Assembly: GCA_965228855.1 (NCBI GenBank)
Contig: CBDDIJ010000002.1
Location: 384,001-448,000, forward strand
Origin: Candidatus Obscuribacterales bacterium
Lineage (GTDB): Bacteria > Cyanobacteriota > Vampirovibrionia > Obscuribacterales > Obscuribacteraceae
Length of the DNA: 64,000 bases
Direction: 5' to 3'
In this document: one piece after another, positions 1,456 to 59,972 of the stretch
How positions within the stretch are numbered: position 1 is the stretch's first letter
How the letters are laid out: each line of letters opens with the position of its first letter
Program-made: the position numbers and the translations under genes
The notes under the pieces: model-generated
Told to the model about the DNA's origin: nothing
The model's database searches: none
What the model saw: the letters and a program-made list of their open reading frames with translations, nothing else

Positions 1456-1721
1456 CTACTATAGTAGACAGTCTAAATTTCCTACCAGAAGAATCCCGAG
1501 ACGCAGCAATAGCAGCCCTTTCAAGATTTAAAACATATCCCACGTCAATTCAAATTCTATTTTGTCGCTGTCAGATAGCCGGATTTTCAGGAAAGCGTCA
1601 TACTGGGATAGACACGGCTCGTCCAGAAAAAGGGAACAGATGTCGAAGATGCGCTGCTGCCCCACCACATCGCAACTTCAGCATTTCGGACTTTTATAGT
1701 AGACACGGTTGCTTATAGTAG
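1456..1721. repeat. Composite palindromic element, locus 1 (54-bp core 1562-1615; arms CTACTATA 1456, TATAGTAG ending 1702 and 1721)
   Basis: TTGTCGCTGTCAGATAGCCGGATTTTCAGGAAAGCGTCATACTGGGATAGACAC aligns with the other 11 cores. Confidence 0.8.
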
Positions 1722-1735
1722 AGAAAGTTGGGAGA

Positions 1736-1763
1736 CGAGAGCCCCAACTTAATGGGGCTCTCG
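1736..1763 (-). terminator. Stem-loop downstream of the SPFH pair
   Basis: CGAGAGCCCCA-acttaa-TGGGGCTCTCG perfect 11-bp stem; weak U-tract. Confidence 0.6.
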
Positions 1764-1817
1764 AAACTCCGCTTCTGATGAACGTTTCCGTTCCGTTCAA
1801 TCAGTCGCGAACTGGGC

Positions 1818-2693
1818 TCACTTCCCCTTGCGCGGGTCGAGATTGATGAACGGGATCTCGCCTTCGCTCATGTACTCGGGGACTTCGCCATCCCACTTCT
1901 CCGCCCGGCGCAGCTCGAGGAGGCCGGCGGCATCCTTGAGCGCCTCGCCCTTCAGCTGGATAGCCGTCGCGCGCGCCTTGGAGAGAAGTTCGGTTTCGTA
2001 CGCGCGGGCATCGGCGATCTTCTTCTTCACGTCACCGGACGCGCGAGCGATCGTAGCCTTCTGGAGAGCTTCGCTCTCGGCCTGCTGCGCACGCTGCTCG
2101 GCCTCGACCTTCGAGTCGATGGAGTCGTTGAACTCCTTCGAGAAATCGAAGTCGGTGATCGCCACCATGTTGATGACGATGGCGCCGGCGAGACCCTTTT
2201 CAGCCAGGGCACCTTCGATCGCCTTGGTGAGCTCCTGAACGACGCGGTCCTTGACCTCGGGTCGCTTCTGGATGAGCTCCTCGGCGAGGTAGCCGCCGGT
2301 GACCTGCTTCAGCGCCTGCTGCACGTTGTTGTCGAAGTACGCGGCATTGATGGCGGCGACACCACCCACGGTGGCATACACGCGCGGCCACATATCGTCC
2401 TTGATCGAGTAGGCGACGGTGATCTCCGTCGGCGCCGACTGACCCTTCACGGTCGCGGCAGCAGCCTTGATGTGGTGGACGAGCTGCGTGGTCGGCAGCT
2501 GCACGACGCTCTTCAGGGGGCTGATGATCATGGGACCATCGCCGCTCTTGACCGGGGTGGGCTCGACCGAGCCGAACTGCGTGACGACGCCGACGTAGCC
2601 CGGGTTGACCCAGGTGACAGTCCGCGCAAGGAAACCGAGGCCGATGACCGCGGCGACGCCCACACCGATGAGGGCAATCTTCTTGGTGTTCAT
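1818..2693 (-). CDS. SPFH/prohibitin (band 7) family membrane protein
   Basis: N-terminal TM helix, VNPGYVGVVTQFG, ITDFDFSKEFNDSIDSKVEAEQ coiled coil, EKWDGEVP; GAAGGA RBS. Confidence 0.9.
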   Translation of the reverse strand: MNTKKIALIGVGVAAVIGLGFLARTVTWVNPGYVGVVTQFGSVEPTPVKSGDGPMIISPLKSVVQLPTTQLVHHIKAAAATVKGQSAPTEITVAYSIKDDMWPRVYATVGGVAAINAAYFDNNVQQALKQVTGGYLAEELIQKRPEVKDRVVQELTKAIEGALAEKGLAGAIVINMVAITDFDFSKEFNDSIDSKVEAEQRAQQAESEALQKATIARASGDVKKKIADARAYETELLSKARATAIQLKGEALKDAAGLLELRRAEKWDGEVPEYMSEGEIPFINLDPRKGK

Positions 2694-2716
2694 GTCCGTA
2701 ATTCCTTCTCGCTCGA

Positions 2717-3613
2717 TTACTTCGACGGGGTCAGCATGGGAACAGGCATCGTGCCGGAATACTTCGGCAGCTTGCCCTTCCAGCGGCTGATCGCGGTGAG
2801 TTCGACCAGGTCGGGATTCTCGCGCAGAGCGGCAGCCTCGCGCTTGATGGCGTCGGCTTCCTTCTTGGCCAGCTCGACGGTCGAGTAGGCTTCGGCTTCC
2901 GCGCTGGCGCGAATGCTCTGAGCCTCACCCTCAGCCTCGGCGACCATCTTGGCGCCCTCGTTGCGAGCACGCTCAGCGTCCTGGCCGGCCTTCACCTTCG
3001 CCTCGATGGCAGCGGCGAACTTCGGCGTGAAGTCGAGGTTGTCCAGGGTGGCGCGGCCGATCTGGATCGAGCCCGGAGCGCCCTTGGACGTCATCGAAGC
3101 GGCGACGTGCGCGCGAATTGTGGACTCGATTTCATCGCGAACGGTTTCGCGCCTCTTCACGAGGTCGGTGGCCGAGAAGTTGGCCGTCACAGCCTTGACC
3201 GATTCCTGGATGGCAGGATCGAGAATGGCAGCCTCGAAGTTTTCGATCGTGCCATATTCGCGGTAGAAAACCGGCGCCTGGGTGTCGATCAGGTTGTACG
3301 GGACGGTGACCACGGTCGTGACCTTCTGCAGGTCATGCGAGCCGGAATTGGCGGTCGCCTTCTTGGGATTGACGAACGTCTGCAGCAGGTCGACCCGCGA
3401 GAGCGGATTGACGATGTTGAACCCGGGGGCCAGCGGCTGCGGATTCATCACGCCGAACAGCGACGTCGCACCCACGTAGCCACGCGGCACGATCTGCACC
3501 GAGTTCCAGCCGGCGATCACCAGAGGGATCGCGATGAGCGCGTACTTGATCAGGCTCAGGGGGTTGAACGGAGCGGCTCCATCCGAACGCCCGTTGAGGA
3601 AGGGAATCTTCAT
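2717..3613 (-). CDS. SPFH/prohibitin (band 7) family membrane protein, paralog
   Basis: VPRGYVGATSLFG, SHDLQKV, NLDFTPKFAAAIEAKVKAGQ, RWKGKLP; start moved to the ATG at 3613 behind an AAGGA RBS. Confidence 0.9.
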   Translation of the reverse strand: MKIPFLNGRSDGAAPFNPLSLIKYALIAIPLVIAGWNSVQIVPRGYVGATSLFGVMNPQPLAPGFNIVNPLSRVDLLQTFVNPKKATANSGSHDLQKVTTVVTVPYNLIDTQAPVFYREYGTIENFEAAILDPAIQESVKAVTANFSATDLVKRRETVRDEIESTIRAHVAASMTSKGAPGSIQIGRATLDNLDFTPKFAAAIEAKVKAGQDAERARNEGAKMVAEAEGEAQSIRASAEAEAYSTVELAKKEADAIKREAAALRENPDLVELTAISRWKGKLPKYSGTMPVPMLTPSK

Positions 3614-3984
3614 CACATCATCCTTGAAGTTGGTTGCGTTGATGCCTGCTCGATTACATTCATTCCAACCCGAAACCGTTCGCGATTCCCTCCACGCAAG
3701 CCGATCTGAGCTCGCGTAAAGGAAATTCGGCTGTCGCAAAGGGGAATTCGGGGTGCGGAAACTTATGCAAATGAGAAACAAGGCATGCCCGTATGTTATG
3801 AAAGTCGCTCTTGGCTAGTTTGCAAAATCGTATTAACTCGGACGGTTTACCCTCCTTTACATCCTTCAAACAGCCCCGCCCCTCGAAACCATTAAGCGAT
3901 TCAAATCCGGCACATGAACCACCTCTCAGCTCGCTAAGCTCACGCAAACAGAGCCTTCCTCCAATATGACTTCTTAGAACCTTT

Positions 3985-4274
3985 CTACTATACATTTTCG
4001 TATCACCAAAATACTGCAAACGACTGCTGCGATGGTCTTTCGAGAATTACGCAGCAAGCAGAACGGGCTTCAAGAACCCGTTTGGCAACGACAGATAGAC
4101 GGAATTTCAAGAAAGCGTCATTCCAGGATAGACAAGAAGCGACTAGACTTGGGTCACATCCCCCGGAAGCTAGACGGGCGCACGAACATGACCCTATCTT
4201 CTATAGTAGCACTTCGGACCATCTACCCCGGAAGCTGGACGGGCGCACGAACATGACCCTATCTTCTATAGTAG
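3985..4274. repeat. Composite palindromic element, locus 2 (core 4082-4135; arms 3985, and ending 4209 and 4274)
   Basis: TTGGCAACGACAGATAGACGGAATTTCAAGAAAGCGTCATTCCAGGATAGACAA; the right arm is duplicated. Confidence 0.85.
4161..4274. repeat. Direct repeat, two 49-bp copies (4161-4209, 4226-4274)
   Basis: CCCCGGAAGCT(A/G)GACGGGCGCACGAACATGACCCTATCTTCTATAGTAG, one mismatch. Confidence 0.95.
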
Positions 4275-4289
4275 TCACTCGTGGGAGAC

Positions 4290-4314
4290 GCGGGGCGGTG
4301 AGGCACCACCCCGC
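4290..4314 (-). terminator. Stem-loop downstream of 4323..5348
   Basis: GCGGGGCGGTG-agg-CACCACCCCGC. Confidence 0.5.
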
Positions 4315-4322
4315 TTTGGAAA

Positions 4323-5348
4323 CTATCGCCTCGATTCGAACTCGCGCTTGTCGTCTTCCGTGAGGAGACGGAACGCGGGATCGCTGAGGAAGCGCACCGG
4401 CATGATCGGGTCGAGTAGACCGGTTCCAAGCCCGAGCAGCCCCGTTCCGTAATCGTTGGTCTTGATGCCGAGCCGATGATAGAACTCGAGACAGACGCCG
4501 ACGCAGGTCCAGTGGTCGGTGTGGCGCTGACCCGCGAAGAGACCGACCCAGTCGTAGCCGGTGACACGGAACTTCGCGCGCAGTTTCTCCTTCCAGGAGG
4601 TCGGCAGCGGCAAGCGGTTGATAAACCGATCACGCCCAGCCTGCGCCTGACAGCGCCAGGCCTCGTTCTGCGCGAGAAGAACCTTGACCAGGTGCGGAAT
4701 CATCGCCTTCTGGTCGTCCGTCAGCGTTGCATTGAGCCGAAGCACAATGTAGTGCCCCTTGCTCGCCAGGCTGCCGGCGACGCGCGACGCTTCCTGCAGC
4801 ACCGTGCCCTTCTCCATGTAAGAGCTGAGCAGGTAAACAGTTCCGTCCGGCATCCTCACCGCCACTTCGCCATGCCCGACAGTCTCGCGCAGGCGATTGG
4901 CCATGTTGCCGGAGGTGAGAATGAGCTCAAGGTTTCCGGTGAGCGCCTCGACGGGCGGGTTGACCCATGCGCCTTTCGGCAACGGACCATGCCCCTGCAC
5001 CCTGTACTTCTGCCGGTTGCGACGGTAGAGAACATAGATGGTGAGCCAGGCCGCGAGTTCCACACCCGCGACGATCTGGAGCTCAAAAACACCCTGCCAG
5101 AGCGCAAGTCCCGACATGACCACGCCGAGCGTGATCGGAATCGTCATTTTTAGACGGGAGAAGACATCGAAATACGTGCGAAACAGATGACCGAGTTCGG
5201 AAGCGGTCAACGCAATCCAGAACGCGCTCACCAGAACACAACTCAGGCTGAAGCCCCAGGAAAGATTGCCGTGGAACCACTCCCAGGTCAGCCAGATCAA
5301 AGCCAGGTACGCGAACGACGTCGCGACCTTTTTGAGCCGATAGAGCAT
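4323..5348 (-). CDS. Four-TM membrane protein with a C-terminal permuted NlpC/P60 (YiiX/YebB-like) domain
   Basis: Hydrophobic N-terminus; His (VGHGEVAV) precedes GYDW and HWTCVGVCLEFY, the permuted papain-like order. Confidence 0.55.
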   Translation of the reverse strand: MLYRLKKVATSFAYLALIWLTWEWFHGNLSWGFSLSCVLVSAFWIALTASELGHLFRTYFDVFSRLKMTIPITLGVVMSGLALWQGVFELQIVAGVELAAWLTIYVLYRRNRQKYRVQGHGPLPKGAWVNPPVEALTGNLELILTSGNMANRLRETVGHGEVAVRMPDGTVYLLSSYMEKGTVLQEASRVAGSLASKGHYIVLRLNATLTDDQKAMIPHLVKVLLAQNEAWRCQAQAGRDRFINRLPLPTSWKEKLRAKFRVTGYDWVGLFAGQRHTDHWTCVGVCLEFYHRLGIKTNDYGTGLLGLGTGLLDPIMPVRFLSDPAFRLLTEDDKREFESRR

Positions 5349-5834
5349 ACGATTATCCCTTCAGGTGAGAGATTTGAGCCGTTATGAACGAAACCACAGC
5401 TACTTGCGATTGCGCCCAACGACTGGAGTCAAACTCGACACGAACTTCTCCGCCTGCCTGGAAACAGAATCGAAGCGACGAAGTTAGTGAGGAGGAGTTC
5501 TTTGAAAAGTTCAGGTAACGGTGGCTAAAAGAACAGTGATAACGCACGTTATGAATTCAAGAGACCTAGAGTCAATCGAAACTAGTTTAATTGCTGTCAA
5601 GAGTTCGATCGCGTTGCTCGACCGGCACACAGACTAGTCTCAAGATCAAAACAACAAACCTTCAGACAAAAACCGCAAACGCCCGCCAGCAATGCGTCCT
5701 CGAATCAGCACCCACAATTTCCCGAGATGATAGCTGCGCTAGCGAAAGCCAAACGTTGAACCGATTTAAGCGAAACCGCGCTCTCTTCCTGCCGAGATCG
5801 GGTAAGTTATCCAGAGGAATCCTCGAATGCCGGA

Positions 5835-6494
5835 GTGGAAAAAATGCGCGCACCATTACTACTTGCCGTCGCAGCAGCGATACTACCCCTGGTATCAGCT
5901 TGCCAGAAGCCGCCAGAGAAAATCGTCGTAAAACTCGAGCCAACGACAAAAGCGGATTACGGCTTTTCAATCGACATGCCCGTCCCATACGTCGAAAGAG
6001 ACATTTCCTGCGGAAAGTGTCTCTACTACAACACACCACTTGGAACGTACAAAGTCGTAGTGAATATGTTCACGATGGCGATGTCCAATTCCTCGACCGC
6101 TCAAGCGCGAATGAATCGAGACCGAATGCAACTTCAGTCTCTTCAAGCACATGCGGGTACTTACGTTGACGCACTAAGTTCGCGTGGTTCCAAGACTATT
6201 TTGTTGAACTACAAACATCAGGGGTTCGAAGACAAAGGCAGCACAAACATCATCCCAAGTCCTGATGGACACCGGCGCTTGCGCACGAAGTGGGCAGACA
6301 ACGAAATTATTCTGAACGACTCGAATCCTGTCGGCGAGTACATAATCCGAGGCTACGTCGGAGAAAACGCCATCTACACAACATCCGTAGAAGGACGACC
6401 GGAATTCGTCAACACGCCGGAAGCCACACAGTTCCTGGATTCCTTCAAGATCGTCGGCTCATCGGCCCTGCCGCCAGGCAAAGCCGCGCCGTAA
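5835..6494 (+). CDS. Hypothetical lipoprotein
   Basis: Signal peptide ending in lipobox LVSAC; the start may be ATG 5844. Confidence 0.65.
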   Translation: MEKMRAPLLLAVAAAILPLVSACQKPPEKIVVKLEPTTKADYGFSIDMPVPYVERDISCGKCLYYNTPLGTYKVVVNMFTMAMSNSSTAQARMNRDRMQLQSLQAHAGTYVDALSSRGSKTILLNYKHQGFEDKGSTNIIPSPDGHRRLRTKWADNEIILNDSNPVGEYIIRGYVGENAIYTTSVEGRPEFVNTPEATQFLDSFKIVGSSALPPGKAAP

Positions 6495-6509
6495 GGCGAC
6501 AAATCCTGT

Positions 6510-6745
6510 CTACTATAAGACAAAGTATCCACAAAGTCCGAAAGGCCTTGTTCTACAATGCTTCCCGCTCTGCGACGTCCAATTACTGCGTCACTTGTCT
6601 ATCTGGCTATGACGGATTTGCCGAAATCCGTCGCTCTCCCGTAGCCAAGCAAGCAGGTTTCGCGCACACTCCGACGACGCACTCGCTGGAAACCCATCTC
6701 TCCCAGACCTTTCGAGGATCGCTATATACCCACTCTTTATAGTAG
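6510..6745. repeat. Composite palindromic element, locus 3 (core 6595-6648)
   Basis: TGTCTACTATAA (6507) ... TTATAGTAGACA (6748) 12-bp inverted repeat around TTGTCTATCTGGCTATGACGGATTTGCCGAAATCCGTCGCTCTCCCGTAGCCAA. Confidence 0.9.
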
Positions 6746-6756
6746 ACAATCCGGAG

Positions 6757-8109
6757 CTAGAAGCGGGTCACTTCGGTGAAATTGAAATCAGCAACTTTCA
6801 TCGCCGGCACCACCTGGGGAACACCCTCTTCACCAGCCGTTCGCCGAGGTTTACCGGATGAAACGATGTTGTTCAGCAATTCGATCAAGCTGACGTTGAA
6901 TCGCAAGTTCTTGATTCCGCGCGTGACTTCGCCGTTCTCCACAAGGAAAGTGCCATCGCGTGTCATACCAGTCACGATTTTGCGCGCCGGATCAACCTGA
7001 CGAACATACCAGACCCGTGTGAGGAGAATGCCTTTCTCAGTGCTTTTTACAAGATCATCGACACTTTTGCCTTCGCCAGCGATCACGAGATTCATAGGAT
7101 TATCGCCGAGCGAATTCGGCTCCGGAAGACCGTGTCCGGTAGGCGCAACACCCATGCGGTTAGCACTTCGGCGACCGTAAACCAGATTTCTCAAGACACC
7201 TTCTTCTACAATTTTGACTTTTTTGCGCGCCAGACCCTCGCCGTCAAACGGGCATCCAGCCTGCTGCGGATGGTAGACGTCATCCTCGATGGTGACATTG
7301 CTGCCGAACACTTTATCGCCCACTCGATCGAGCAAAGAAGAGCGTTTATCAAGATGGCTCGTTCCCGTAAAGTCCCACCAGAGGTACGAAAGCAGGTCGA
7401 GAAACGCGGAATGTTCCAAAATCACAGTGTAGCGCCCGGGCGTTATTCCTTCCGGACTGCTCGACGCCTTCGCCTTAAAAGCAGCTCTGCGAGCCAACTC
7501 CAGCGTATCGACCATCTGAAGGTTCGGACCTTGCGCTTTCGCCCAACCCGTCGAATCTTGCCCGCACATCGTCACAGAGCACTCTACATGCGTCTCACGG
7601 TGATAGCTGAATAAACCCTTTGAATTGCCCAGCGCCTCAAAAGCAGTTCCACTGGCATAAACACCTGCAGCTGACAGCTGACTCTCGCTGGCAACCGCAA
7701 TCATGCGCGAAATCGCAGCGGCTCGATCGGCGGCGGTGACGCTCAACACATTCGCCTCATACCGGTCCGGGTAAGAATGCCACTCTCCATCGTTGTCGGA
7801 AACAGTCAACGGAAGCAGACACTGATCCTTTTCCATCAGCTTTACAGCGCTAATAGCACCATCCACAACAGCGCATACGCCGGTCGTCGACAAATCATCT
7901 GTTTCCAATCGAATCTGGCGACCGTTGGACAGCACTCGCACAGCCAGCTTATCAATGGTATTCGCTTGATGCTGCGTCATCTCATTGTTAGCGAAGCGGG
8001 ACGTTTCGACGTCGGTGCCCAGCAAATGTACTTCGATTCCCTCGACGCTCTTACCAGCGTGGTGAATCGCAAGGTCGACAATCTTACGGGCTGATTGCTC
8101 AGTTAACAT
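6757..8109 (-). CDS. tldE: TldE/PmbA family protein
   Basis: SRFANNEMTQ, PFDGEG, VTGMTRDGTFLVENGEV; paired with tldD. Confidence 0.85.
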   Translation of the reverse strand: MLTEQSARKIVDLAIHHAGKSVEGIEVHLLGTDVETSRFANNEMTQHQANTIDKLAVRVLSNGRQIRLETDDLSTTGVCAVVDGAISAVKLMEKDQCLLPLTVSDNDGEWHSYPDRYEANVLSVTAADRAAAISRMIAVASESQLSAAGVYASGTAFEALGNSKGLFSYHRETHVECSVTMCGQDSTGWAKAQGPNLQMVDTLELARRAAFKAKASSSPEGITPGRYTVILEHSAFLDLLSYLWWDFTGTSHLDKRSSLLDRVGDKVFGSNVTIEDDVYHPQQAGCPFDGEGLARKKVKIVEEGVLRNLVYGRRSANRMGVAPTGHGLPEPNSLGDNPMNLVIAGEGKSVDDLVKSTEKGILLTRVWYVRQVDPARKIVTGMTRDGTFLVENGEVTRGIKNLRFNVSLIELLNNIVSSGKPRRTAGEEGVPQVVPAMKVADFNFTEVTRF

Positions 8110-8118
8110 TCCCTTCTC

Positions 8119-13100: not shown

Positions 13101-13106
13101 TGCGAT

Positions 13107-20587: not shown

Positions 20588-21046
20588 CTACTATATGATC
20601 CCGTTTTTCCCGCCGCCCTACTATATGATCTCGTTTCTTTTCAACGACCGCTGACACCCGGCTAGCCTTGTGGCGCAACCAAGGACAGCCTCGCTCCCGT
20701 CCAGGGCACTCGTCGCAAGGCACTTTTGGCTACGTAGCGTAGACGGATTTTCAAAAATCCGGCAACGCCACAGCGCCAAAACGCAGTTGATCTCACTTTA
20801 AAACGCAACCAAAGCGGACTAAAAACCAGACGAACTCTGACTTCTAGCGCATCCACGCTATCCTACGGCATCTAGTAGCTATGCAACAGGCACTTTTGGC
20901 TACGCTGCGTAGACGGAATTTTCAAAAATCCGGCAACGCCACAGCGCCAAAACGCAGTTCGCAAACCTCAAACTGAAATCAAACGCCCAAGAACTAGTCT
21001 CACTAGGTCCTTTCAAGGAACGAGCTTATACGTCGGCTTATAGTAG
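20588..21046. repeat. Composite palindromic element, locus 4 (two cores, 20726-20779 and 20896-20950)
   Basis: AGGCACTTTTGGCTACG..GCGTAGACGGA(A)TTTTCAAAAATCCGGCAACGCCACAGCGCCAAAACGCAGTT twice, 170 bp apart; arms CTACTATA 20588 and 20618, TCTAGTAG 20871, TATAGTAG 21039. Confidence 0.9.
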
Positions 21047-30047: not shown

Positions 30048-30297
30048 CTACTATAAAGCCCAGTGTTTCCGTTTCTTCCAAATCGCACTCTGACACAGGG
30101 TTTAGGATGCCACTATGTGCGAGCTCAATCGATTTTGTCTATCACACGATGACGAATTTCGCGAAAAGTGTCATCTTGTCGTAGACAGACTCAGAGTTTC
30201 CGCGGTCAAAGCACCCGGGACTCGTAGCAAAGAAGCGCTCACCCACTGCTTTTAAGAGCGGCAGGACGCTAGCCAAGTTTACTTGTCTTTATAGTAG
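30048..30297. repeat. Composite palindromic element, locus 5 (core 30135-30188)
   Basis: TTGTCTATCACACGATGACGAATTTCGCGAAAAGTGTCATCTTGTCGTAGACAG; arms CTACTATAAAG...CTTTATAGTAG (11-bp inverted repeat). Confidence 0.9.
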
Positions 30298-30306
30298 CAA
30301 AATTTG

Positions 30307-30403
30307 AAAAAAAAAACGGCGACGAAAGCGCCGTGTTCCAGTTTGTTTTCCTTTTGCGGACGTTCAGACAAGGGACAAGCCGGATTTCTCCGGCTTGTCC
30401 CTT
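30307..30403 (-). terminator. Two stem-loops (30370-30403; 30316-30334 followed by a long U-run on the minus strand)
   Basis: AAGGGACAAGCCGGA/TCCGGCTTGTCCCTT; ACGGCG/CGCCGT next to an A-run. Confidence 0.7.
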
Positions 30404-30423
30404 TTCCGATGCGGCGATGGTGT

Positions 30424-31608
30424 TCAGTACTTACCGTACCCGTTCGGATAGATCGGGTCGTAGCCCGGGACCTTCTCCATCAGAGCCTTCAGTTCGGCGG
30501 CGCGCTTCTCCTTCTCAGCCGCAGCCTCGGCGCTCAGACGAACCTGCGCTTCCTCGAGGTCCTTGCTCGTGAACGGTCCAGCCACGCCGAACGTGCGCCG
30601 AACCTTCGCGATCGCGGACTCGCCGGCAGCTTCACGAACCTGAGCAGCGGTGAAACCGCTATCGAGGTCGAACATGCTGCGAACGATTCTGCCGGACTCC
30701 TCACCACGCGAGAGAGCGATGGCAGACTCGCTGCAGTTGTTCTCGTCAATACCTTTGACGAGGTACTCGGAGTCACGAGCTCCCAGAGCCTCCGACAGCG
30801 AAGTTTCGCTGATCGGTCCGTTCAGGGAGAGGTCTTCACGCTGCAAGCGCAGGCGCTTCTCGCCGAGTTTCATCGCGAGCTCGTCGAACGTCCAGGTCTC
30901 GGGCAGCTTCTTTTCCGCAGCGAAGACTTTCTGAAGATGGGCGGCGACTGCCCGCTTCATGTCCTCGTAGCCGGCATCGCGTTTGAAGTCGTATTCCGCG
31001 CGAAACCAGCCTGAAGTCTCCGGTCCGGCGACTTCGCGATACTGCTCGTAGGCGAAACGAGCCGACAGCCCCGGATAGATTTTGACCTTCTCCTGAAGAA
31101 GCGCCTCGGCTTCCCGCTGGAAGTATTCGGTCGAGTCCTTCGGATAGTTGGTCATAACCCCCTTGGAGAGGTCGTAGCCATTCATATGACCGAACATGAA
31201 ACGGAGTTCGTCGCGACCCAGAGCCATGATGTAATCGCGCTCAGTGAAGCCGGTCGCCAATCCGAGGTACTCCATCCGCTCCGCGAGCCGATTGGCACCG
31301 ACTGCGCGACGCAGATCAGCGCAAGTAAAATTCGGACCGATGCTGTACCGGCGCCGAAGTTCCTGAATGGACCGCTCGCCGCTTGAACGCACGATATCCG
31401 CCTCGGTGAAGGCTTCGCCGACGCGATATGACTTCTGGATGGACTCGACTGCGAGGTCGCCGGCGCTCTTGCGAATCATCTCCGCGTCGAACTTGGCGGG
31501 CAGGTTGTGAGTGGCGCGCAGCGATTCGAGAGCATTACGCTCGGCGAACGCACTGGTCGAGAGAACCGCGGTGAAAGCGACCGAGAGAAGGAGAGCCAAC
31601 TTGCGCAT
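30424..31608 (-). CDS. Secreted protein with ~26-aa degenerate repeats
   Basis: Signal peptide MRKLALLLSVAFTAVLSTSAFA; repeats FTEADIVRSSGE, FTCADLRRAVGA, FTERDYIMALGR, WTFDELAMKLGE, FTAAQVREAAGE. Confidence 0.75.
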   Translation of the reverse strand: MRKLALLLSVAFTAVLSTSAFAERNALESLRATHNLPAKFDAEMIRKSAGDLAVESIQKSYRVGEAFTEADIVRSSGERSIQELRRRYSIGPNFTCADLRRAVGANRLAERMEYLGLATGFTERDYIMALGRDELRFMFGHMNGYDLSKGVMTNYPKDSTEYFQREAEALLQEKVKIYPGLSARFAYEQYREVAGPETSGWFRAEYDFKRDAGYEDMKRAVAAHLQKVFAAEKKLPETWTFDELAMKLGEKRLRLQREDLSLNGPISETSLSEALGARDSEYLVKGIDENNCSESAIALSRGEESGRIVRSMFDLDSGFTAAQVREAAGESAIAKVRRTFGVAGPFTSKDLEEAQVRLSAEAAAEKEKRAAELKALMEKVPGYDPIYPNGYGKY

Positions 31609-31946
31609 TTGAAGACCTATCGATTTGAGGTTCAAGAATGCGAACCCAGCTATTCGACCGCAAGTCAAACCCAGAATTCCATCAAAGTCGTACACCCAGA
31701 CCAATCCCAGAAGCGTTGCGGCAACTGGCAGTGGTTTGGATTAGTGACGATGACGGTGTTCTGGTTTTGTGTACGACGCATAGATGAGTTCAGTGAAGGA
31801 CTTGAACCTACACGCGCAAACGGTTTAAACCTAAGAAAATCGGTTGCAAAACCGACACCACGCGCACCATCAGTGGTGCAATTACGCAATCGCATGCTCA
31901 CCAGTATCACGTGACCGGTAACGTTCCCGTCACGCCCTTCCGCCTC

Positions 31947-32175
31947 CTACTATGGAAAACCCAGTTCATTTTTCGAGCGTGTAATCGAAGGGTGGCGACC
32001 AGTTTCACAAAATGCAGTCCCATCACCTGCCTCGGTTGTCTATCACTCGTTGACGGATTTTCGAAAATTCGTCAACGAGCGATAGACAAAACTATTCAAG
32101 CGAAACTGACGGCGAAGCGAAACATGCACACAATCAGCCTTACCGACTCAAAGCAACCACGAAGGCATATAGTAG
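31947..32175. repeat. Composite palindromic element, locus 6 (core 32036-32089, near-perfect palindrome)
   Basis: TTGTCTATCACTCGTTGACGGATTTTCGAAAATTCGTCAACGAGCGATAGACAA; arms CTACTATG 31947 and TATAGTAG 32168. Confidence 0.95.
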
Positions 32176-41757: not shown

Positions 41758-42467
41758 CTACTATATCCGAGAGTGTCTTGCTACTCCCGTCAAATCCGTT
41801 CAGGATAGGCATCTCGGGAATTTTGATGCGATCGCAAACCAGATAAACTGGTGATTTGTCTATCGCTCAATGCCAGTTTTGAGCAGATCCGTCATTCAGG
41901 GATAGACAGAATTCAAAACTTGTCTACTATATCCGAGAGTGTCCCGCCACTCCCGTGAAATCCTTACACGATAGGGTTTTCTGGGATTTTGACAAGATGG
42001 CAAACCAGGTAAACGTGGTTACTTGTCTATCGCTCAATGCCAGTTTTGAGCGAATCCGTCGTTCAGGAATAGACAGAATTCACGGTTCGTCCCGTATAAA
42101 GATCGTTCTAAAATAGTCCGTGAGATTCTCGCGGTGGAAGCAAGCGGCCATGGCTTGGCCGCCAGGCTGTCAGCTCACAGGCTAACCGTGCTTGGCTTTG
42201 GACAAGAGCCATCGCTCTTCTAATTCCGGTTTCAGTCTCGGCTTAAATTGTAGTTACTCCAATTTAAGAGGAGAACGTTCATTTTACAGATAACGTAAGA
42301 ACGTCCTTGTCTACGCCAGATAGACGATTTTGGCGAATTCCGGCATTCTGGCATAGACATACCTTGCCGTTCCTTCTGTATCGCGGAGTCCACGTTCGCG
42401 CATCGCGCCAACTGGAGCCAACTGCCGAGGCTGGTTCCGCCGGAGACACTATGCCTCTCTATAGTAG
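41758..42467. repeat. Composite palindromic element, locus 7 (three cores: 41856-41909, 42023-42076, 42307-42360)
   Basis: A ~160-bp arm+core unit is tandemly duplicated (41758, 41924); third core TTGTCTACGCCAGATAGACGATTTTGGCGAATTCCGGCATTCTGGCATAGACAT; TATAGTAG 42460. Confidence 0.9.
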
Positions 42468-51580: not shown

Positions 51581-51634
51581 ATAAGATTTCCATGTTCGAA
51601 CACTAGATGCCCGCGGACCAGCATCTATCCGATT

Positions 51635-53768: not shown

Positions 53769-54944
53769 GTGAGCACCATGATTACAAGTCAGGACGTTTT
53801 ACCATTCGGCGAATTCTTAAACGATGATCACCACGCGATCAGAGAAATGGTGCGCGACTTCGCGACCAAGGAAATTGCGCCGAAGGCCGCAGAAGTAGAC
53901 AAAGAAGCCCGCTTTCCGATCGAAACATTCGCCAAACTTGGCGAACTCGATCTTCTCGGTCTAACTGTTGACCCCGAATATGGTGGCGCCGGGGCAGATT
54001 ATCGCAGCTACGTTATAGCAGTCGAAGAGATCGCAAGAGCTTGCGGAAGCACCGGATTGAGCTACGCGGCCCACTGTTCGCTTGGAACGAATCCGATCAA
54101 GCTGTTCGGAACAGAAGAGCAGAAGAAGAAATATTTGCCCAAACTTGTCTCCGGAGAATGGCTTGGTTGCTGGGCATTGACGGAACCTGGAACAGGATCG
54201 GATGCTGCAGCCCAGAAGACAACCGCTAAGCTTGTTGGCGACCAGTATGTTTTAAACGGCACCAAACAGTTCATCACCAACGCAACTCACGCGAAAGTGA
54301 ACATCATTATGGCGATGACGGATCAGTCGGAAGGCAAGAAAGGAATTTCTTCCTTCATCGTGGACGAAGGCACGCCCGGCTTTTACGTTTCCAAAGTCGA
54401 AAAGAAAATGGGCATGAAGGGCTCGCCGACTGCCAGCTTGACTATGGAAGACTGCAAAATCGGCAAAGGCCAGCTCATCGGCGAGGAAGGGGATGGATAC
54501 CGGCAAGCGCTCACAACGCTCGAAGGCGGACGCCTCTCTATCGCGGCACTCGCTCTCGGCATAAGCCAGGCGGCTTTCGATGCAGCTCTCAGCTACGCGA
54601 ATCAACGCGAATCATTCGGTGTTCCGATTGGCAAACACCAGTTTATTCAAGGCTACCTCGCCGACATGTCGACGCAGATTACCGCTGCCAGACTGCTTCT
54701 CTATCATGCTGCCTGGATGAAGGATCACGGCAAGCGTGTCACTCTCGAAGGCTCGCAAGCAAAGCTATACGCTTCGGAAGTATCTTCAAAAGTAACCAAC
54801 CTGGCCGTGCAAATTCACGGCGGCTACGGATACGTAGAAGACTTCCCGGCAGAGCGCTTCCTTCGCGACGCTAAGCTCTGCGAAATCGGCGAAGGCACTT
54901 CGGAAATCCAACGCCTGGTCATCGCTCGTCAGCTCGGCTTGTAA
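53769..54944 (+). CDS. Acyl-CoA dehydrogenase
   Basis: LTEPGTGSD, NGTKQFITN, QIHGGYGY, RDAKLCEIGEGTSEIQR. Confidence 0.95.
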   Translation: MSTMITSQDVLPFGEFLNDDHHAIREMVRDFATKEIAPKAAEVDKEARFPIETFAKLGELDLLGLTVDPEYGGAGADYRSYVIAVEEIARACGSTGLSYAAHCSLGTNPIKLFGTEEQKKKYLPKLVSGEWLGCWALTEPGTGSDAAAQKTTAKLVGDQYVLNGTKQFITNATHAKVNIIMAMTDQSEGKKGISSFIVDEGTPGFYVSKVEKKMGMKGSPTASLTMEDCKIGKGQLIGEEGDGYRQALTTLEGGRLSIAALALGISQAAFDAALSYANQRESFGVPIGKHQFIQGYLADMSTQITAARLLLYHAAWMKDHGKRVTLEGSQAKLYASEVSSKVTNLAVQIHGGYGYVEDFPAERFLRDAKLCEIGEGTSEIQRLVIARQLGL

Positions 54945-54978
54945 TTTATCGCGCCGAACGGCTCGGAAAATAAACATT

Positions 54979-55015
54979 AGCGAAGAGACCGCGGCATGGC
55001 CGCGGTCTCTTCGCT
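54979..55015 (+). terminator. Stem-loop after the acyl-CoA dehydrogenase gene
   Basis: AGCGAAGAGACCGCGG-catgg-CCGCGGTCTCTTCGCT 16-bp stem. Confidence 0.65.
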
Positions 55016-55046
55016 TCTGGGTAGAATGAAAACGGGTTGGCAGTTA

Positions 55047-56183
55047 ATGACAAAACGCGCAATTGTCGATAAGCATCTAAAACCGGCATTGCAAGCCGGT
55101 TTCATTGTGCTGTTTGCTTTTAACGGCAATGCCTGTGCCGCACCCCTACATTCGCATGCGGAAAAACAGGCCGCAGTTAAAACTGAAACTGCGAAAGCTG
55201 CTGCGTCAGCTGGAACTCGCGAACCTGAATCAAAATCCAGAGCGATGTTCTATCTGCACCAGGCCCAAGATGCACAAAAACGACAGGACCACGGCGCCGT
55301 GCTGGATTTCTGCAGGAAAGCACTGGACATTGATCCCAAATTCGCTATGGCCTACGCGGTCCGCGCCAGGACTTATATGCACAGAAAGCGCTGGGACAAG
55401 GCAATAGCCGATGCCGACCGCGCGATCAGTTTAGATCCAAAAACATCACTGGCGTATGTCGTGCGCGGCAAGAGTGGCTATCTAAGCGGGCTCGAGTCAA
55501 ACGAGAAAGTGCAGCGAGATTTTGCAGAGGCGGTTCGGATTGACCCGAACGATTCGGACGCCAATTTCTACCTGGGCATAATGTTCACGGTCAGCAAGAA
55601 CTATGAGCTTGCCGTCAAACATTTGACGGTAGCAGCAAAGTACGACCCGTCAAACAAAAACATCTTCCAGTATCGCTCGGCGTGCTACACGTTGATGAAA
55701 AAACCGGATCTGGCGATAGCCGATCTCTCAACAGTGATCCGGATAGACCCCAAGGCTTATGAGGCTTATGCAACGCGCGCGGATGTTTACTCGCGTTTAG
55801 GGAAGAACGAACAGGCAATCGCAGACTGCTCGGAGGCGATTAAGCTCAAGCCCCGCGATTACACCTTGCGAAATCTGCGAGCCTCGCTGCTCATCAAAAT
55901 GGGCAAACATGCCGACGCAATCAAGGACTTCACCGAAGCAATTGCACTCAACCCTCTGGATGAAGACCTGTTCTTGAGGCGAGCGAACTCTTACGCGGCG
56001 CTGAAAGAGTACGAGAAGGCAGTCGCCGACTACTCTGAGTCGATAAGCCTGGAACCGGACTATGAGAGCGCATATCGCCTCAGATCCAAGGTTTACGACT
56101 CGCTGGGTAAACGGGACCTGGCGGCAAAAGACCGCGCCCGAGCCGCCGAACTGAAGAAACTCCCCGCCGAAAAACGGATCTAG
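55047..56183 (+). CDS. Secreted TPR-repeat protein
   Basis: About 8 canonical TPRs (AIADxxxAIxLDP); start uncertain (54996, 55026 or 55047). Confidence 0.9.
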   Translation: MTKRAIVDKHLKPALQAGFIVLFAFNGNACAAPLHSHAEKQAAVKTETAKAAASAGTREPESKSRAMFYLHQAQDAQKRQDHGAVLDFCRKALDIDPKFAMAYAVRARTYMHRKRWDKAIADADRAISLDPKTSLAYVVRGKSGYLSGLESNEKVQRDFAEAVRIDPNDSDANFYLGIMFTVSKNYELAVKHLTVAAKYDPSNKNIFQYRSACYTLMKKPDLAIADLSTVIRIDPKAYEAYATRADVYSRLGKNEQAIADCSEAIKLKPRDYTLRNLRASLLIKMGKHADAIKDFTEAIALNPLDEDLFLRRANSYAALKEYEKAVADYSESISLEPDYESAYRLRSKVYDSLGKRDLAAKDRARAAELKKLPAEKRI

Positions 56184-56191
56184 GCCCAGCC

Positions 56192-56309
56192 CCCTCCCTA
56201 CTACTCCATTTAAAACTGCTAAGCGTCCAAGAACGCCTCCCTACCGAGATCCCTTCCTACTACTCCATATAAAACTGCCAAGCGTCCAAGAACGCCTCCC
56301 TACCGGGAT
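56192..56309. repeat. Tandem 59-bp duplication containing the left arm of locus 8
   Basis: CCCT(C/T)CCTACTACTCCAT(T/A)TAAAACTGC(T/C)AAGCGTCCAAGAACGCCTCCCTACCG(A/G)GAT twice. Confidence 0.95.
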
Positions 56310-56502
56310 TGCAGGGGACGAGGGAAATTCCACTCCGGAGTTTGGCTATCCTGCATAGACGGATTTTCGAAAATCCGTCTATGCAGCGTAGCCAAAGCCA
56401 GGGTCAAGGCGGCTGCGGTTCCGATTGGAATCGCGCGATGGCTGACCCTGCTGCCCTTCTGAGTCTTAACACGCTCGAAGATTCTAGTACTTCCTATAGT
56501 AG
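56198..56502. repeat. Composite palindromic element, locus 8 (core 56342-56395)
   Basis: TTGGCTATCCTGCATAGACGGATTTTCGAAAATCCGTCTATGCAGCGTAGCCAA; arms CTACTACT 56198 and 56257, TATAGTAG 56495. Confidence 0.95.
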
Positions 56503-56519
56503 ACTTGTTCTTAAAGAAA

Positions 56520-56561
56520 AGCGAGGGCGAAGCAGCCTGGGGAGCTGGTTTCGCCCTCGCT
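56520..56561 (-). terminator. Terminator downstream of 56671..57315
   Basis: AGCGAGGGCGAA...TTCGCCCTCGCT followed by TTTCTTT on the minus strand. Confidence 0.7.
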
Positions 56562-56670
56562 GGGTCGGGAGGATTCAGGCATTCGCGAACGCGGCCTGGG
56601 TGGGTTTGGAGCCCGCAAAGTGAATCGCGGGTCTCCAGCTTCTGTTCTCACCACTTGCGTCGTCGCCGGA

Positions 56671-57315
56671 CTAGATGTCCAGAACGATGACGTTTTCCGT
56701 CGGTTGATACTTCTCCGTCAGACAGGCGGCATTGACGAAGGTCGTGCCGTTCTGCTCCGTGACGCCGGCAGAGTGATGGACGTGTCCGAAACAGTGAACC
56801 TTCGGGCGAACCTGAAGGACACGTTCGAGCAGGAACTCATCTCCGAGCGTCGGCCAGAGCGGCGCGCGGTCCAGAATGCCTTTGGGCGGACCGTGCGTCA
56901 CGAGGACATCGACATGGTCAGGAACCTTCTGCCAGACGGCGGCCAGTTCCGGAGAACTGCGCGGCAGGTTGAATGCCCACTTGCGATACTCGGGTTGCCA
57001 CGGACTTCCGTAGATGCGGAGGCCGGCGAGCTCGACGAGTTCATCCTGCAAGTAAACGGCATTGGTAAGCAAAGCACGAGCTTCCGCGTTCATCTGCTCG
57101 AACACGGTTTCGTGATTGCCAGCAACGACAACCTTGAAGCGGTGAGGCAATTCACCGAGCTCCCGGTTGAAATTTGCGACTTGGCTGAGATGTTCAGATG
57201 GCGTTTTTGCCTCCACTCGCATGGTGAAGTCACCGCAGTGGATCAGCATGTCACCGTCCGGCACCTTCACTCTGCCAAGTCTGTTGTGAGTATCGCTCAC
57301 AAAGACCAGTCTCAT
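56671..57315 (-). CDS. Metallophosphoesterase (MPPED/239AB-like)
   Basis: SDTH, HCGDFT, AGNHE, YGSPWQP, THGPP, FGHVH. Confidence 0.92.
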   Translation of the reverse strand: MRLVFVSDTHNRLGRVKVPDGDMLIHCGDFTMRVEAKTPSEHLSQVANFNRELGELPHRFKVVVAGNHETVFEQMNAEARALLTNAVYLQDELVELAGLRIYGSPWQPEYRKWAFNLPRSSPELAAVWQKVPDHVDVLVTHGPPKGILDRAPLWPTLGDEFLLERVLQVRPKVHCFGHVHHSAGVTEQNGTTFVNAACLTEKYQPTENVIVLDI

Positions 57316-57847
57316 ACGCTATTCGCTCCTCTTGCTTTTAGCCGATGTTATTGAAAGAGGCACAGCGAAGCTACTTCCGATAGCGACGACAAAGACAAGC
57401 CCAAAGCAAAAGCCTGTCGAATGTCATCGCTGCGGGACGTCGCCAGCAAGGCGTATCACAACACACATCACGGCGATGTATGTGTTACCTGCTTTTAGTG
57501 CTGTTGCTGTCTTGGAAACCTGGGTTTAGTTGCTTAGCGAGTTGAAAGAAATATCGATAAAGCGAACCTAGCTCTTATGTGCGTAAGTATCAAGAAACGC
57601 TCTGGACCTAGTATTAAACTTTGGATTAAATCTGGTGAGCGGGGCTTAAGCTGAAATCTTAAACACACACCAGTTCAGCGTTTCGAGCCCAGACTATCGC
57701 TAACTACGCGAACTGTTGGTATTTCGCCTAAAATATACCTCGGTCGAAACCGAACAGCCTTGCATCTAGCGACGTTAGCAGGTCCGCGCGCCCACTTTTC
57801 AACTTTGGATACCCGTAGACTTTTGTGCAATTACCAGGGAGTACAAC

Positions 57848-58597
57848 GTGAACCAGGTAAGCCTTTACGCCATGCCTCTTTTTGCGTTTGTGGCCGCCCT
57901 ATACTCCTCAGTCGGACATGGTGGAGCAACTGGGTATCTGGCGCTAATGTCATTCATGGACATGCCACCGCAGGTGATGTCAACCACGGCGCTTATTTTA
58001 AATCTGCTAACTGCCGGAATCTCATGTTTTGTCTACGCCAGAGCCGGATTTCTGTCAATCAAACTGACTTTTCCGTTCATCCTGGCCTCGATACCCGCAG
58101 CCCTTGTCGGCTCAATGGTGCCGATTAGCGAACGACAATACAGTTGGATGTTGGCGGCAGCCCTGATAGTCACGGCTGCATTACTGATCGGGGCGAAACG
58201 CAAGACTCAGGAGGCGACGTCATTTGCTTCACCTCCGCCGCTTTACCAGGGCGGTCTGGTTGGAGCTACTCTCGGCTTCGTCTCCGGCGCTATCGGCATA
58301 GGCGGAGGTGTTTTCCTCAGTCCGATCATCATTCTCATGCGCTGGGCTGATACGAAGACGACTTCAGCGACCGCGGCTCTATTCATAATCGCAAACTCGA
58401 CATCCGGTCTAGTTGGTCGCACCCTGGCTGGAACCCTGGCGTTCGGAAACGTGCTGCCATTTTTACTGTGCGCATTTGTCGGCGCTGTCGCCGGATCCAT
58501 CTGGGGAGCGAAACTGTCCAGCGCCACGAAACTCAGACTTGCGCTTGCAGTGGTTCTTCTGGTGGCCGCAGTGAAGATGTTTCTCCCAAAATCTTAG
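57848..58597 (+). CDS. Sulfite exporter TauE/SafE family protein
   Basis: YSSVGHGGATGY, GFVSGAIGIGGGVFLSP; about 8 TM helices. Confidence 0.9.
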   Translation: MNQVSLYAMPLFAFVAALYSSVGHGGATGYLALMSFMDMPPQVMSTTALILNLLTAGISCFVYARAGFLSIKLTFPFILASIPAALVGSMVPISERQYSWMLAAALIVTAALLIGAKRKTQEATSFASPPPLYQGGLVGATLGFVSGAIGIGGGVFLSPIIILMRWADTKTTSATAALFIIANSTSGLVGRTLAGTLAFGNVLPFLLCAFVGAVAGSIWGAKLSSATKLRLALAVVLLVAAVKMFLPKS

Positions 58598-59127
58598 CAA
58601 TCACCGCATGTAATACCAGCAACATGTTCACAACAGGCTGTTCACCTCGAGTTCACATTGAAGACTGCGCTAACTGAGCAATGTCAGCTTGCACCGAATG
58701 CGCTTCATGACAGCATCGTTTTTTGTTTATTTTTGTCCGGCGCGAGAGGTCTAGATGTCCAATGGCGCCGGCTTTCGACCAGATATTTACATTTGTGAAA
58801 GAACGTTGTTGCGGGAGCTTCATAAAGCTGGAGCTTTGTTCCCGACACCGTAAGTGGTACCACACAGTCACTTCTTCTTTCAATTCCCGGACGTCCCCTG
58901 CACATTTACCAATAGCCAGTTCTGCGCCAATCCAAACACTTTCCTTCCAGCCTGCGGCCGGAAGAATTGTGCGGCGTTCGGTGAATGGCTGAATTGCGAG
59001 ACTGGGGACGTTAAACATCTGGAGAACTGAATGAACGGGTAGTGAGCAGAACCTAAACGCAGCGCAGCTTTCTCGGTACTGACTCGTCGTCAGGCCGGTT
59101 GTGCAACCCTCCATAAGAGACCTCCGC

Positions 59128-59625
59128 ATGAGCACAAGAATCGAAAAAATTATCTACGCATCACGATGGCTGCTCGCGCCGATCTATCTGGGTCTGGCGT
59201 TGGGCTTGCTGTTGTACGGTGTTCGCTTTGTCGCAGAACTCTGGCACCTCGCCCACGATGTTCTGACGGCATCCGATGAAAAAATGCTGTTGTCGGTGCT
59301 GCATCTGATCGAAATCGCCATGCTCGCGAACTTCATGATCATGGTCATAATCGGCGGCTTCGCACTCTTCGTGAAACAGCTAAAGGGCGAAGCCACGCAG
59401 CTGCAGTGGCTCGACCATATCGACCCAGGCGTCTTGAAACTCAAAATGAGTATGTCTTTGCTGGGCGTCTCAAGCGTTCACCTCTTGGAGGCCTTTGTGA
59501 ACGCTGCTTCCGTCACGACGGGGACTCTGGCGAAGCTGCTCGTCATCCATCTGGTTTTCGTCGCATCCACAATGGCAATCGCGTGGGTCAACCGCATCGG
59601 TCGCCGAGAGCCGAACGACCACTAA
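59128..59625 (+). CDS. TIGR00645 / UPF0114 (YqhA) family membrane protein
   Basis: ASRWLLAPIYLGL, IAMLANF, LKLKMSMS, SSVHLLEAF. Confidence 0.9.
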   Translation: MSTRIEKIIYASRWLLAPIYLGLALGLLLYGVRFVAELWHLAHDVLTASDEKMLLSVLHLIEIAMLANFMIMVIIGGFALFVKQLKGEATQLQWLDHIDPGVLKLKMSMSLLGVSSVHLLEAFVNAASVTTGTLAKLLVIHLVFVASTMAIAWVNRIGRREPNDH

Positions 59626-59660
59626 CGCTTCCTGAACGGGGCGTTTTGAAGTAGTCCCTG

Positions 59661-59708
59661 GAAGGGCTGTAGGTCCGGATATCCGGCTCTGCAGCCCTTC
59701 TTTTTTTT
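59661..59708 (+). terminator. Intrinsic terminator
   Basis: GAAGGGCTGTAG...CTGCAGCCCTTC followed by T8. Confidence 0.85.
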
Positions 59709-59725
59709 CCAGCCCAGCCGCTCAT

Positions 59726-59972
59726 CTACTAAAGTATCTAGTTTCTAAAACAGTCCAAAAGCAGTCATGGCAGCTGGTTTCCACTTTCACGTCCGTCACT
59801 TGCTCCGCATTGGCGGCGTGGCGATGACGCTTTCGGCGAAATTCGTCAATGCCCGATAGACAAGATCTAGTTACAAGCATGCTCGATTGAACGGAGAAAA
59901 CCGGAAAGCATTAGCCCCACAGCTGCGCTGGACTCCGGCGGAGTTCGAAGCCCCCGCTATATTACCTAGTAG
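59726..59972. repeat. Composite palindromic element, locus 9 (core 59810-59863)
   Basis: TTGGCGGCGTGGCGATGACGCTTTCGGCGAAATTCGTCAATGCCCGATAGACAA; arms CTACTAAA 59726 and CCTAGTAG 59965. Confidence 0.8.

Follow-up and report, generated by a model that had tools for sequence, protein, structure and literature searches.

The stretch of DNA analysed here, hereafter the window, comprises 64,000 nucleotides of the genome of a Candidatus Obscuribacterales bacterium, a non-photosynthetic relative of cyanobacteria, and carries a dispersed family of 54-bp palindromes. An earlier note had described 12 of them, and all 12 are present where it placed them, eleven with 54 bp and the copy at 20896 with 55 bp. 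These palindromes are real but are not the whole element, as they proved to be the cores of a larger arm-core-arm unit (Table 1). Beyond the earlier description, our analysis identified the flanking arms, counted the family genome-wide and found it clustered at the replication origin.

Each core consists of two 17-bp sites with 33 bp between their centres, in a 17-16-17 bp layout. The sub-palindromes that had been written as GTC-N11-GAC are real in the form GTC/GGC-N11-GAC/GCC, their outer G and C being essentially invariant. Within the half-core, G3, C5, G17 and C19 are near-invariant, and separate modules of four bases can be recognized, along with a free trinucleotide and a tract of A/T; the core termini read TTGKCT/AGMCAA. 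The arm motif, TATAGTAG in the outward reading, is 124-fold enriched in core flanks; read inward it has the form CTACTATA-N6-MGTA, and A and T tracts come next, at 33-35 and 54-56 respectively. Allowing one mismatch, it is found 60-105 bp out on at least one side of 179 of the 210 cores of the genome, against 0.9% of random windows, and its distances to the core edge peak at about 66, 76-79, 87-91 and 98-100 bp, that is, in steps of about 11 bp. The complete unit measures 225-250 bp.

Table 1. Repeat units and intervening genes of the window, with the sites of a second repeat family in the same genome (window positions, unless a contig is named).
Feature	Position	Strand	Details
Full unit	1456..1702		Left arm 1456-1463, core 1562-1615, right arm 1695-1702, second copy 1714-1721
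Two SPFH/Band-7 genes	1818..3781	-	Pfam; between units 1562 and 4082
Full unit	3985..4209		Arm 3985-3992, core 4082-4135, arm 4202-4209
Full unit, present/absent as block	6491..6754		Arm 6510-6517, core 6595-6648, arm 6738-6745
Tandem unit	20588..21046		Arm motifs 20588, 20618; core 20726-20779; degenerate arm 20871-20878
Tandem unit, second part	20588..21046		55-bp core 20896-20950, arm 21039-21046
Full unit	30048..30297		Arm 30048-30055, core 30135-30188, arm 30290-30297
426-aa ORF between two units	30424..31704	-	Without Pfam or NCBIfam match
Full unit	31947..32175		Arm 31947-31954 (one mismatch), core 32036-32089, arm 32168-32175
Arm+core tandem duplication, period 167	41758..42076	+	Arms 41758, 41924; cores 41856-41909, 42023-42076
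Core with one arm	42307..42467		Core 42307-42360, arm 42460-42467
Near-perfect palindromic core + arm	56342..56502		Core 56342-56395, arm 56495-56502
Unit with degenerate right arm	59726..59972		Arm 59726-59733 (one mismatch), core 59810-59863, right arm ends ~59972
Second-family sites in G000	C2:145.6k, 572.6k, 907.9k, 1043.7k, 1488.8k; C5:885.5k, 1605k		

Copy number, placement and distribution

The genome-wide scan that the earlier note had called for was made with a symmetric 54-position weight matrix. It yielded 210 cores, each above 30 bits, at 161 loci of the window's own genome (G000; 8.2 Mb, 95% complete; C2, C4 and the like denote its contigs), far more than the 12 of the window, and none in 16.4 Mb of reversed/complemented control. 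The great majority (206) lie outside called open reading frames (ORFs). Core loci are favoured in convergent gaps (65 of 161, versus 66 of 339) and avoided in divergent ones (13 of 161, versus 97 of 339).

The family is restricted to a narrow lineage. A pattern search of 107 Obscuribacterales genomes, which served as our order-wide survey, detected the core in three: G000 (193 copies), G007 (175), a congener collinear with G000 and about 95% identical to it, and G006 (1); no core was found in the other five of the seven congeners, G001-G007. In a scan of 185,579 species the sole genome match was an Obscuribacterales bacterium with 17 loci, whose core sequences are identical to those of G007, and two metagenome assemblies contributed 28 core loci, 27 of which align to G000. 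No match was obtained in the viral contigs searched, leading us to reject identity with a phage attP.

The proposal that the family was undescribed held: Rfam gave no match to the repeat at the gathering threshold, and the element is not an attC, CRISPR or dif sequence. An integron attC was rejected as the termini do not follow RYYYAAC/GTTRRRY, the fold is not conserved and the units are symmetric and dispersed. The spacers of the tandem arrays are copies of one another, which does not correspond to a CRISPR array (cas genes were not searched). The repeat thus departs from the defining features of the REP/RAYT, MITE (miniature inverted-repeat transposable element), attC, CRISPR and parS classes. 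We found no description of it in the literature, although the REP catalogues of two reports available to us in part (PMC3733652, PMC12306157) might hold related motifs.

Conservation of the core suggests double-stranded protein binding

The earlier note had claimed covarying stems and suggested either a folded hairpin or cruciform or a tetramer-binding site. The covariation holds weakly. Across the 161 loci, 17.8 of 27 positions are paired between the two halves of a core, versus 16.6 for shuffled halves. Of the left-right cells, 74.7% are paired, versus 71.4% in shuffles (0 of 500 as high). Occasional template switching may be the source of this slight symmetry excess. Pairs with a double change, in contrast, amount to 17 against 16.2 by chance. 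Core positions 18 and 21-23 pair below expectation, about one third of the positions are unpaired on average, and column composition is sufficient to account for the pairing inside the 17-bp unit. As for the four N6 segments given as examples, they are complementary but are among the best cases: of ten window cores tested, seven fold better than shuffles, and those at 1562, 4082 and 59810 do not.

The comparison of orthologous cores was more informative. Among 63 core pairs of G000 and G007 (one further pair, with 12 differences, was excluded), only 3 of 158 changed pairs were compensatory, and 109 had gained or lost pairing on one side. At the same time, purifying selection acts on specific positions of the core, since invariant-type positions differed in 7 of 756 cases, 8-fold less often than variable-type positions (59 of 756). 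The conservation of the invariant positions together with the scarcity of compensatory changes is what one expects of a double-stranded protein site. That it functions as an RNA hairpin, or as DNA extruded into a cruciform, seems to us very improbable. The folding of most window cores, the excess of paired cells and an intergenic, convergent placement like that of REPs would agree with such a function; it is largely refuted by the orthologue substitutions, and the unpaired third of the positions, the poor pairing of the central ones and the keeping of the spacing in helical steps across unrelated sequences also argue against it.

This geometry is indeed shared by repeats unrelated in sequence. 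A second family (46 copies in G000 and 41 in G007) consists of TGCAA-N6-TTGCA twice, 33 bp apart, with a period of 102-103 bp; G013 has 54 copies of GATTGC-N5-GCAATC pairs, G026 at least 17 copies of a CGWATWCG type and G016 two copies of a further type, all with 33 bp between centres. An A/T-tract spacer is common to these four families. In G026 the same arm lies 59-61, 70-72 or 83-84 bp from all ten cores examined; the G013 cores have no arm, and a scan of the origin zone found no further 33-bp family. Since the 33-bp spacing is fixed in sequence-unrelated families and the arms are placed in steps of about 11 bp, we favour binding to double-stranded DNA. The option of a tetramer-binding site fits these data and the position-specific conservation.

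Clustering around the replication origin

Cores are concentrated in 1.07 Mb around dnaA (C2:77-1150 kb), where 174 of the 210 are located, with 36 in the remaining 7.1 Mb; the density is 162 per Mb in this zone versus 5 per Mb elsewhere, a 32-fold difference. The zone, which contains dnaA-dnaN-yidC at 793 kb and the GC-skew switch, is sharply bounded and shows a GC content at third codon positions (GC3) of 0.61-0.75, versus 0.51-0.57 elsewhere. In the coreless congeners the orthologous genes are in synteny and equally GC-rich, indicating that the GC-rich domain is older than the cores and ruling out the cores as its cause. Core-gene codon bias was unsupported as a cause, since most housekeeping markers lie outside the zone.

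A chimeric assembly was rejected as the cause of the clustering because the collinear G007 shows the same clustering and contigs of one sequencing run (X3) match the window. Likewise, multiple origins or DnaA boxes at the arms were rejected, as none of 232 arms has a box within 60 bp and the GC skew switches sharply at a single place; no canonical DnaA box was found in C2 785-800 kb.

Some further observations concern the layout of this genome. The 16S gene and most tRNAs, like most housekeeping markers, are outside the origin domain, and about 21 tRNA genes form an array of 4 kb at C3:724-727 kb. The stretch C2:1-77 kb and contig C4, with a GC content of 60-66%, are without match in the G007 stretches compared and are possibly foreign in the assembly.

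The clustering could mean that the units are organisers of the origin domain maintained by the host, centromere- or ram-like, with a host protein binding the arm and core turnover being secondary. Apart from the clustering in the GC3-rich domain and the conservation in place of the invariant core positions, several data favour this possibility. A search of 61 Obscuribacterales genomes, whose chromosomes reach 9 Mb, detected ParB (TIGR00180) in five, and in G000 just on C4; near dnaA in G000 there is no parS within two mismatches, the single two-mismatch match lying 560 kb away. A precedent is RacA, which binds 25 regions between -412 and +200 kb (PMC4914108). The strict arm motif, near background in most genomes of the order, is origin-proximal in G061 (4 of 4), G012 (6 of 6) and G091 (4 of 5), three genomes that were picked after the counts were known, which weakens this point. 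Moreover, five congeners of similar size have no cores and 0-3 strict arm matches, so that the array is dispensable at the genus level; whole units are absent in close strains; and no arm-binding protein was found. We regard an organiser role as unlikely, though it is compatible with the repeat–enzyme partnership proposed below.

Turnover of units between strains

Besides X3, contigs of the sequencing runs X5, X6, X7 and X10 were compared with the window, as was a 96-98% identical strain (L239). Contigs of X5, X6 and X10, from three studies, skip exactly 6491-6754, with two letters at the junction, and a loose end in X7 agrees with the missing block. This block of 264 bp, situated between two convergent stop codons, is made up of the 6595 unit and of 19 and 9 bases outside it. 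In the empty allele the junction has the sequence CTAG, two letters being replaced and no target duplication being present, although this is one site and the evidence is weak. As G002 and G006 also lack a core at this slot, the 6595 unit looks like a gain. At other loci units were exchanged: in X7 the 1562 unit (1420-1712 in the window) is replaced by a different 270-bp stretch, X6 and X10 have a different arm start there, X10 carries 311 other letters in place of 3870-4280, and in L239 one different unit takes the place of both units and the 426-aa gene of the 30048-32175 region.

Two side observations relate to neighbouring intergenic DNA. At 5603-5691, three related strains carry 90-91 other letters instead of the 88-bp intergenic stretch of the window. 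The slot orthologous to position 20618 holds in G002 (L109:4540-4870) the arm motif and a 36-bp tandem repeat, without a core, and in G001, G003 and G006 arm-like motifs.

Rearrangements concentrate at the units. The comparison of G000 with G007 gave 74 indel breakpoints, of which 41 are no farther than 130 bp from a core, in DNA that makes up 3.6% of the region. Of 42 tandem duplications, 30 start at most 5 nt from CTACTATA, at the first C of the arm, where 5.1 were expected. When distant loci have related arms, their two core halves are 0.80 and 0.79 similar, versus 0.61, and the far arm stays at the background of 0.265; the copied unit is therefore usually arm plus core. Because related units share both core halves, a serine-integrase-style strand exchange at the central dinucleotide was rejected.

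Genes may travel with the units. Those absent from the syntenic 160 kb of G002 adjoin a unit in 18 of 26 cases, versus 33 of 87 shared genes (p = 0.007; hand counts from this one comparison of G000 with G002), a modest association, and two gene-size indels end exactly at an arm. Possible cargo in the window includes the two SPFH/Band-7 genes, absent from the syntenic place in G002 and G006 and present in four closer strains, and the 426-aa ORF.

IS110 insertions and the search for a mover

Seven cores are interrupted by members of two IS110 families (4 + 3 copies) at fixed positions, which differ between the families (e.g. L143, C2:987.6k, and L144, C2:774.7k, and five more); in three of the 210 cores the outer end is interrupted. 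These elements, of 1258-1267 bp, encode DEDD and Transposase_20 domains and match NF033542 above cut-off, the proteins of the two families being 52% identical. At the left end, at positions ~102-108, 127-129 and 175, stretches of 5-8 nt match both flanks of the target and, in one of the families, the donor as well; they are the predicted guides of a bridge RNA. Three of the interrupted loci are intact in G007. The IS110s use the cores as landing sites; they did not make them.

It is also conceivable that the repeat is a MITE- or REPIN-like non-autonomous element whose mover was lost or is unrecognised, be it IS630-like with a CTAG target, an HUH enzyme or a retron-type reverse transcriptase (RT) encoded at C2:944.5k. 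The inverted terminal motifs, the CTAG of the empty 6595 allele and the copies with a fixed start and variable ends, which resemble one-ended or rolling-circle transposition, are in line with this idea. The RT gene (L182:1381-2550), whose product has a C-terminal extension, stops 17 bp short of an arm; orthologues occur in G007 and G013, none being found in G001-G006. On the other hand, the polymorphic block extends 19 and 9 bases past the terminal motifs without target duplication, and the two IS110 families are the sole multi-copy insertion sequences in G000. DDE_3 (PF13358) is absent from G000-G007 (other DDE families were not searched individually), no resolvase was found, and Y1_Tnp (PF01797), absent from G000, G006 and G007, has matches just in the coreless G002 and G005. 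The RT has orthologues in about 16 further genomes of the order, eight of their loci being without arm or dual site; its G007 copy is truncated and none was found in G026. Altogether we consider a non-autonomous element of this kind rather improbable.

A PLD-HTH protein family linked to 33-bp dual sites

The earlier note had advised looking for a co-distributed recombinase, HUH/RAYT nuclease or DNA-binding protein. The HUH/Y1 type gave nothing in the genomes with cores, as stated above; genes of another type do lie beside the dual sites. The products of five G000 genes, all within C2:67-1043 kb, are about 260-310 aa long and combine a PLD domain, a CxxC motif and an XRE helix-turn-helix (HTH); this type of protein is hereafter called PLD-HTH. 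The gene at C2:103k has cores of family 1A, the main family, on both sides, and that at C2:1043k is flanked by second-family arrays. One PLD-HTH gene of G000 takes the place of a core kept by G007 and another that of a two-core cassette, while G007 has a further gene between arrays of a 73-bp subfamily. Genes beside similar 1A and 1B cores encode sister proteins, according to a well-supported fork of a quick tree.

The link of such genes to 33-bp sites extends across genera. We scored the flanks of 43 PLD-HTH genes from about 20 genomes (37 outside G000 and G007 and six of their own, two near-identical copies included) for a 33-bp dual site irrespective of its sequence, with a threshold of at least 28. 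Such a site lies beside 13 of the 43, with a sequence that differs from gene to gene, and control flanks gave 3 of 600; at 30/36-bp spacing the count was 2 of 43. Outside G000 and G007, 11 of 37 genes have a dual site, 2-64 bp after the stop codon in eight cases and upstream in three. Five of the 37 genes have an upstream arm directed at them, the rate in controls being 1.3%, which adds to the link.

Clustering of the family at 50% identity gives at least 385 groups (E up to 1e-30), labelled just "hypothetical" by the sources. H107, K109 and D114 are invariant in 38 aligned sequences, in which the CxxC motif and the XRE HTH are conserved; a paralogue at C2:918k, outside this alignment, is without the H and K. 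The protein matches PLDc_2, and a structure model with a pLDDT score of 93 has NucT, PLD3, Zucchini and Nuc as its best folds (Foldseek E 1.2e-6 against NucT, 6ehi), suggesting a Nuc-like fold. The nearest matches of the C-terminal HTH are controller (C) proteins and HipB. Proteins of these two kinds bind paired operators.

A putative repeat–enzyme partnership and its alternatives

Taken together, our best reading is a partnership similar to that of REP and RAYT, built on double-strand recognition by an HTH and on a PLD nuclease: the 54-bp palindrome would be the core of a mobile repeat of 225-250 bp, likely bound by a cognate PLD-HTH protein that would cut nearby and spread the repeat. We assign this reading a probability of about 0.5. 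Two HTH dimers would bind the two 17-bp sites on one face of the helix, and the single-HKD PLD domains would dimerise into an active site of the Nuc/BfiI type; BfiI is a PLD dimer in which one shared active site cuts both strands (PMC2853115). The core-bound protein could then contact the arm through a DNA loop; once the arm were nicked or broken at its outer edge, repair would copy arm and core from another copy, a process that may now and then capture a neighbouring gene.

A number of data weigh against this partnership. Of 65 aligned cores, 64 are common to G000 and G007 (12 more lie outside aligned blocks), so that most predate the split of the two. The far ends of the tandem duplications vary from 24 to 227 bp inward, and no fixed cut maps in the core; many junctions carry 4-12 extra unrelated letters, for which a search of nearby sequence found no source. 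When distinct values are counted, the tandem periods show weak helical phasing (p = 0.04 at 10.45 bp), and a period of 12 bp fits equally. PLD-HTH genes occur in 57 of the 107 genomes of the order and in all seven congeners, including the five coreless ones, and 30 of the 43 loci, including three of the five in G000, have no dual site. Being gained and lost at loci, these genes may themselves be cargo or parasites. G000 also has 17 tyrosine-recombinase matches, and the RT beside an arm is a candidate partner. The proposed partnership does not account for the confinement of the units to about 1 Mb around the origin.

Finally, in the five loci with an upstream arm directed at the PLD-HTH gene, the arm is 158-334 bp away. 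In these cases the arm is therefore a possible promoter and the dual site a possible autoregulatory operator, and one may envisage that core and arm are just that, with passive spread by gene conversion and slippage and no involvement of the nuclease. The TAnnnT hexamer of the arm and the resemblance of the HTH to controller proteins and HipB are consistent with this. Nevertheless, eight of the 11 sites follow the stop codon, the units prefer convergent gaps and shun divergent ones, the arm logo shows no -35 or extended -10 signal, and passive slippage without microhomology gives no fixed duplication start. A purely regulatory role of core and arm thus appears doubtful, and distinctly so.

We also considered a wider role for the enzyme in which each PLD-HTH protein would bind its own palindrome pair, set three helical turns apart, and cut and rejoin DNA through a phosphohistidine at the shared arm, so that arm+core units spread and genes are captured, the roughly 200 phased sites of the 1-Mb origin domain replacing the missing ParB-parS centromere; we think this improbable, if worth keeping in mind.

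As an isolated observation, the window also encodes (19-1341, + strand) a protein of 440 aa that is without a Pfam match and carries two c-di-GMP-binding motifs of the MshE type.

Comparison with known systems

The MITEs Correia and RUP are non-coding elements of 150-250 bp with inverted terminal motifs, present or absent between strains. The repeat described here is likewise non-coding, ends in inverted motifs and is present or absent between strains; unlike them, it has no cognate transposase or target duplication that we could find, and its degenerate arms recombine independently of the core.

It resembles parS/ParB and RacA/ram in that numerous sites are scattered around oriC, asymmetrically and across several hundred kb (PMC4914108). 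It differs in having about 200 composite units of 240 bp instead of 10-25 sites of 14-16 bp and in being lineage-restricted and mobile, in a genome with neither a chromosomal ParB nor a parS consensus. That the units keep to a GC-rich domain at the origin, in an order mostly without ParB, raises the separate question of how the origins of large chromosomes are organised.

The closest parallels are REP, BIME and REPIN sequences with RAYT (TnpA-REP), together with REPtrons and TIRtrons (PMC3733652, PMC8266576). As in those systems, hundreds of intergenic, lineage-specific palindromes favour convergent gaps and form tandem arrays, enzyme genes are flanked by the cognate repeat, enzyme paralogues are repeat-specific, and an IS110 uses the repeat as target. 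IS621, an IS110 bridge recombinase, inserts into REPs (PMC11208160), and the elements found here resemble it in entering a palindromic repeat and in their guide-like left-end matches to the target flanks; they account for seven interrupted cores, not for the existence of the repeat, and represent natural bridge-RNA targets in a new repeat. The differences from REP/RAYT are nonetheless considerable. In place of an HUH/Y1 enzyme, the linked enzyme is a PLD-HTH protein. There is no constant 5' GTAG/CGTC tag before the hairpin, as GTAG precedes the central hairpin in just 27 of 322 half-cores (the arm does end in GTAG, without any hairpin), and the stem is not kept by compensation. A 54-bp four-site core with phased arms, confined to an origin domain and measuring about 240 bp, contrasts with 20-50 nt. 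The spread of long bacterial palindromic repeats is known, in part, just for REP/RAYT, where a single-stranded hairpin and an HUH enzyme are involved; here the repeat would be read as double-stranded DNA of fixed helical geometry, by an enzyme combining PLD and a controller-like HTH.

PLD-HTH resembles Nuc, NucT, Zucchini and BfiI/BmrI in its single HKD motif and, to judge from the model, its Nuc-like fold. It appears to form a natural family, for which we noted no methyltransferase at the loci viewed, unlike BfiI/BmrI, and no link of this family to dispersed repeats seems to have been described before. The dozens of natural protein–site pairs, with different 17-bp sequences, make a recognition code and the cutting chemistry testable, and these proteins could supply compact site-specific nucleases. 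In our searches the combination of a PLD nuclease and an HTH was otherwise met just as an engineered fusion, in which the BmrI cleavage domain joined to C.BclI cuts near the binding site of the controller protein (PMC2094064); with a single HKD motif and a C-terminal controller-like HTH, PLD-HTH has the layout of this engineered BmrI198-C.BclI enzyme in a natural protein.

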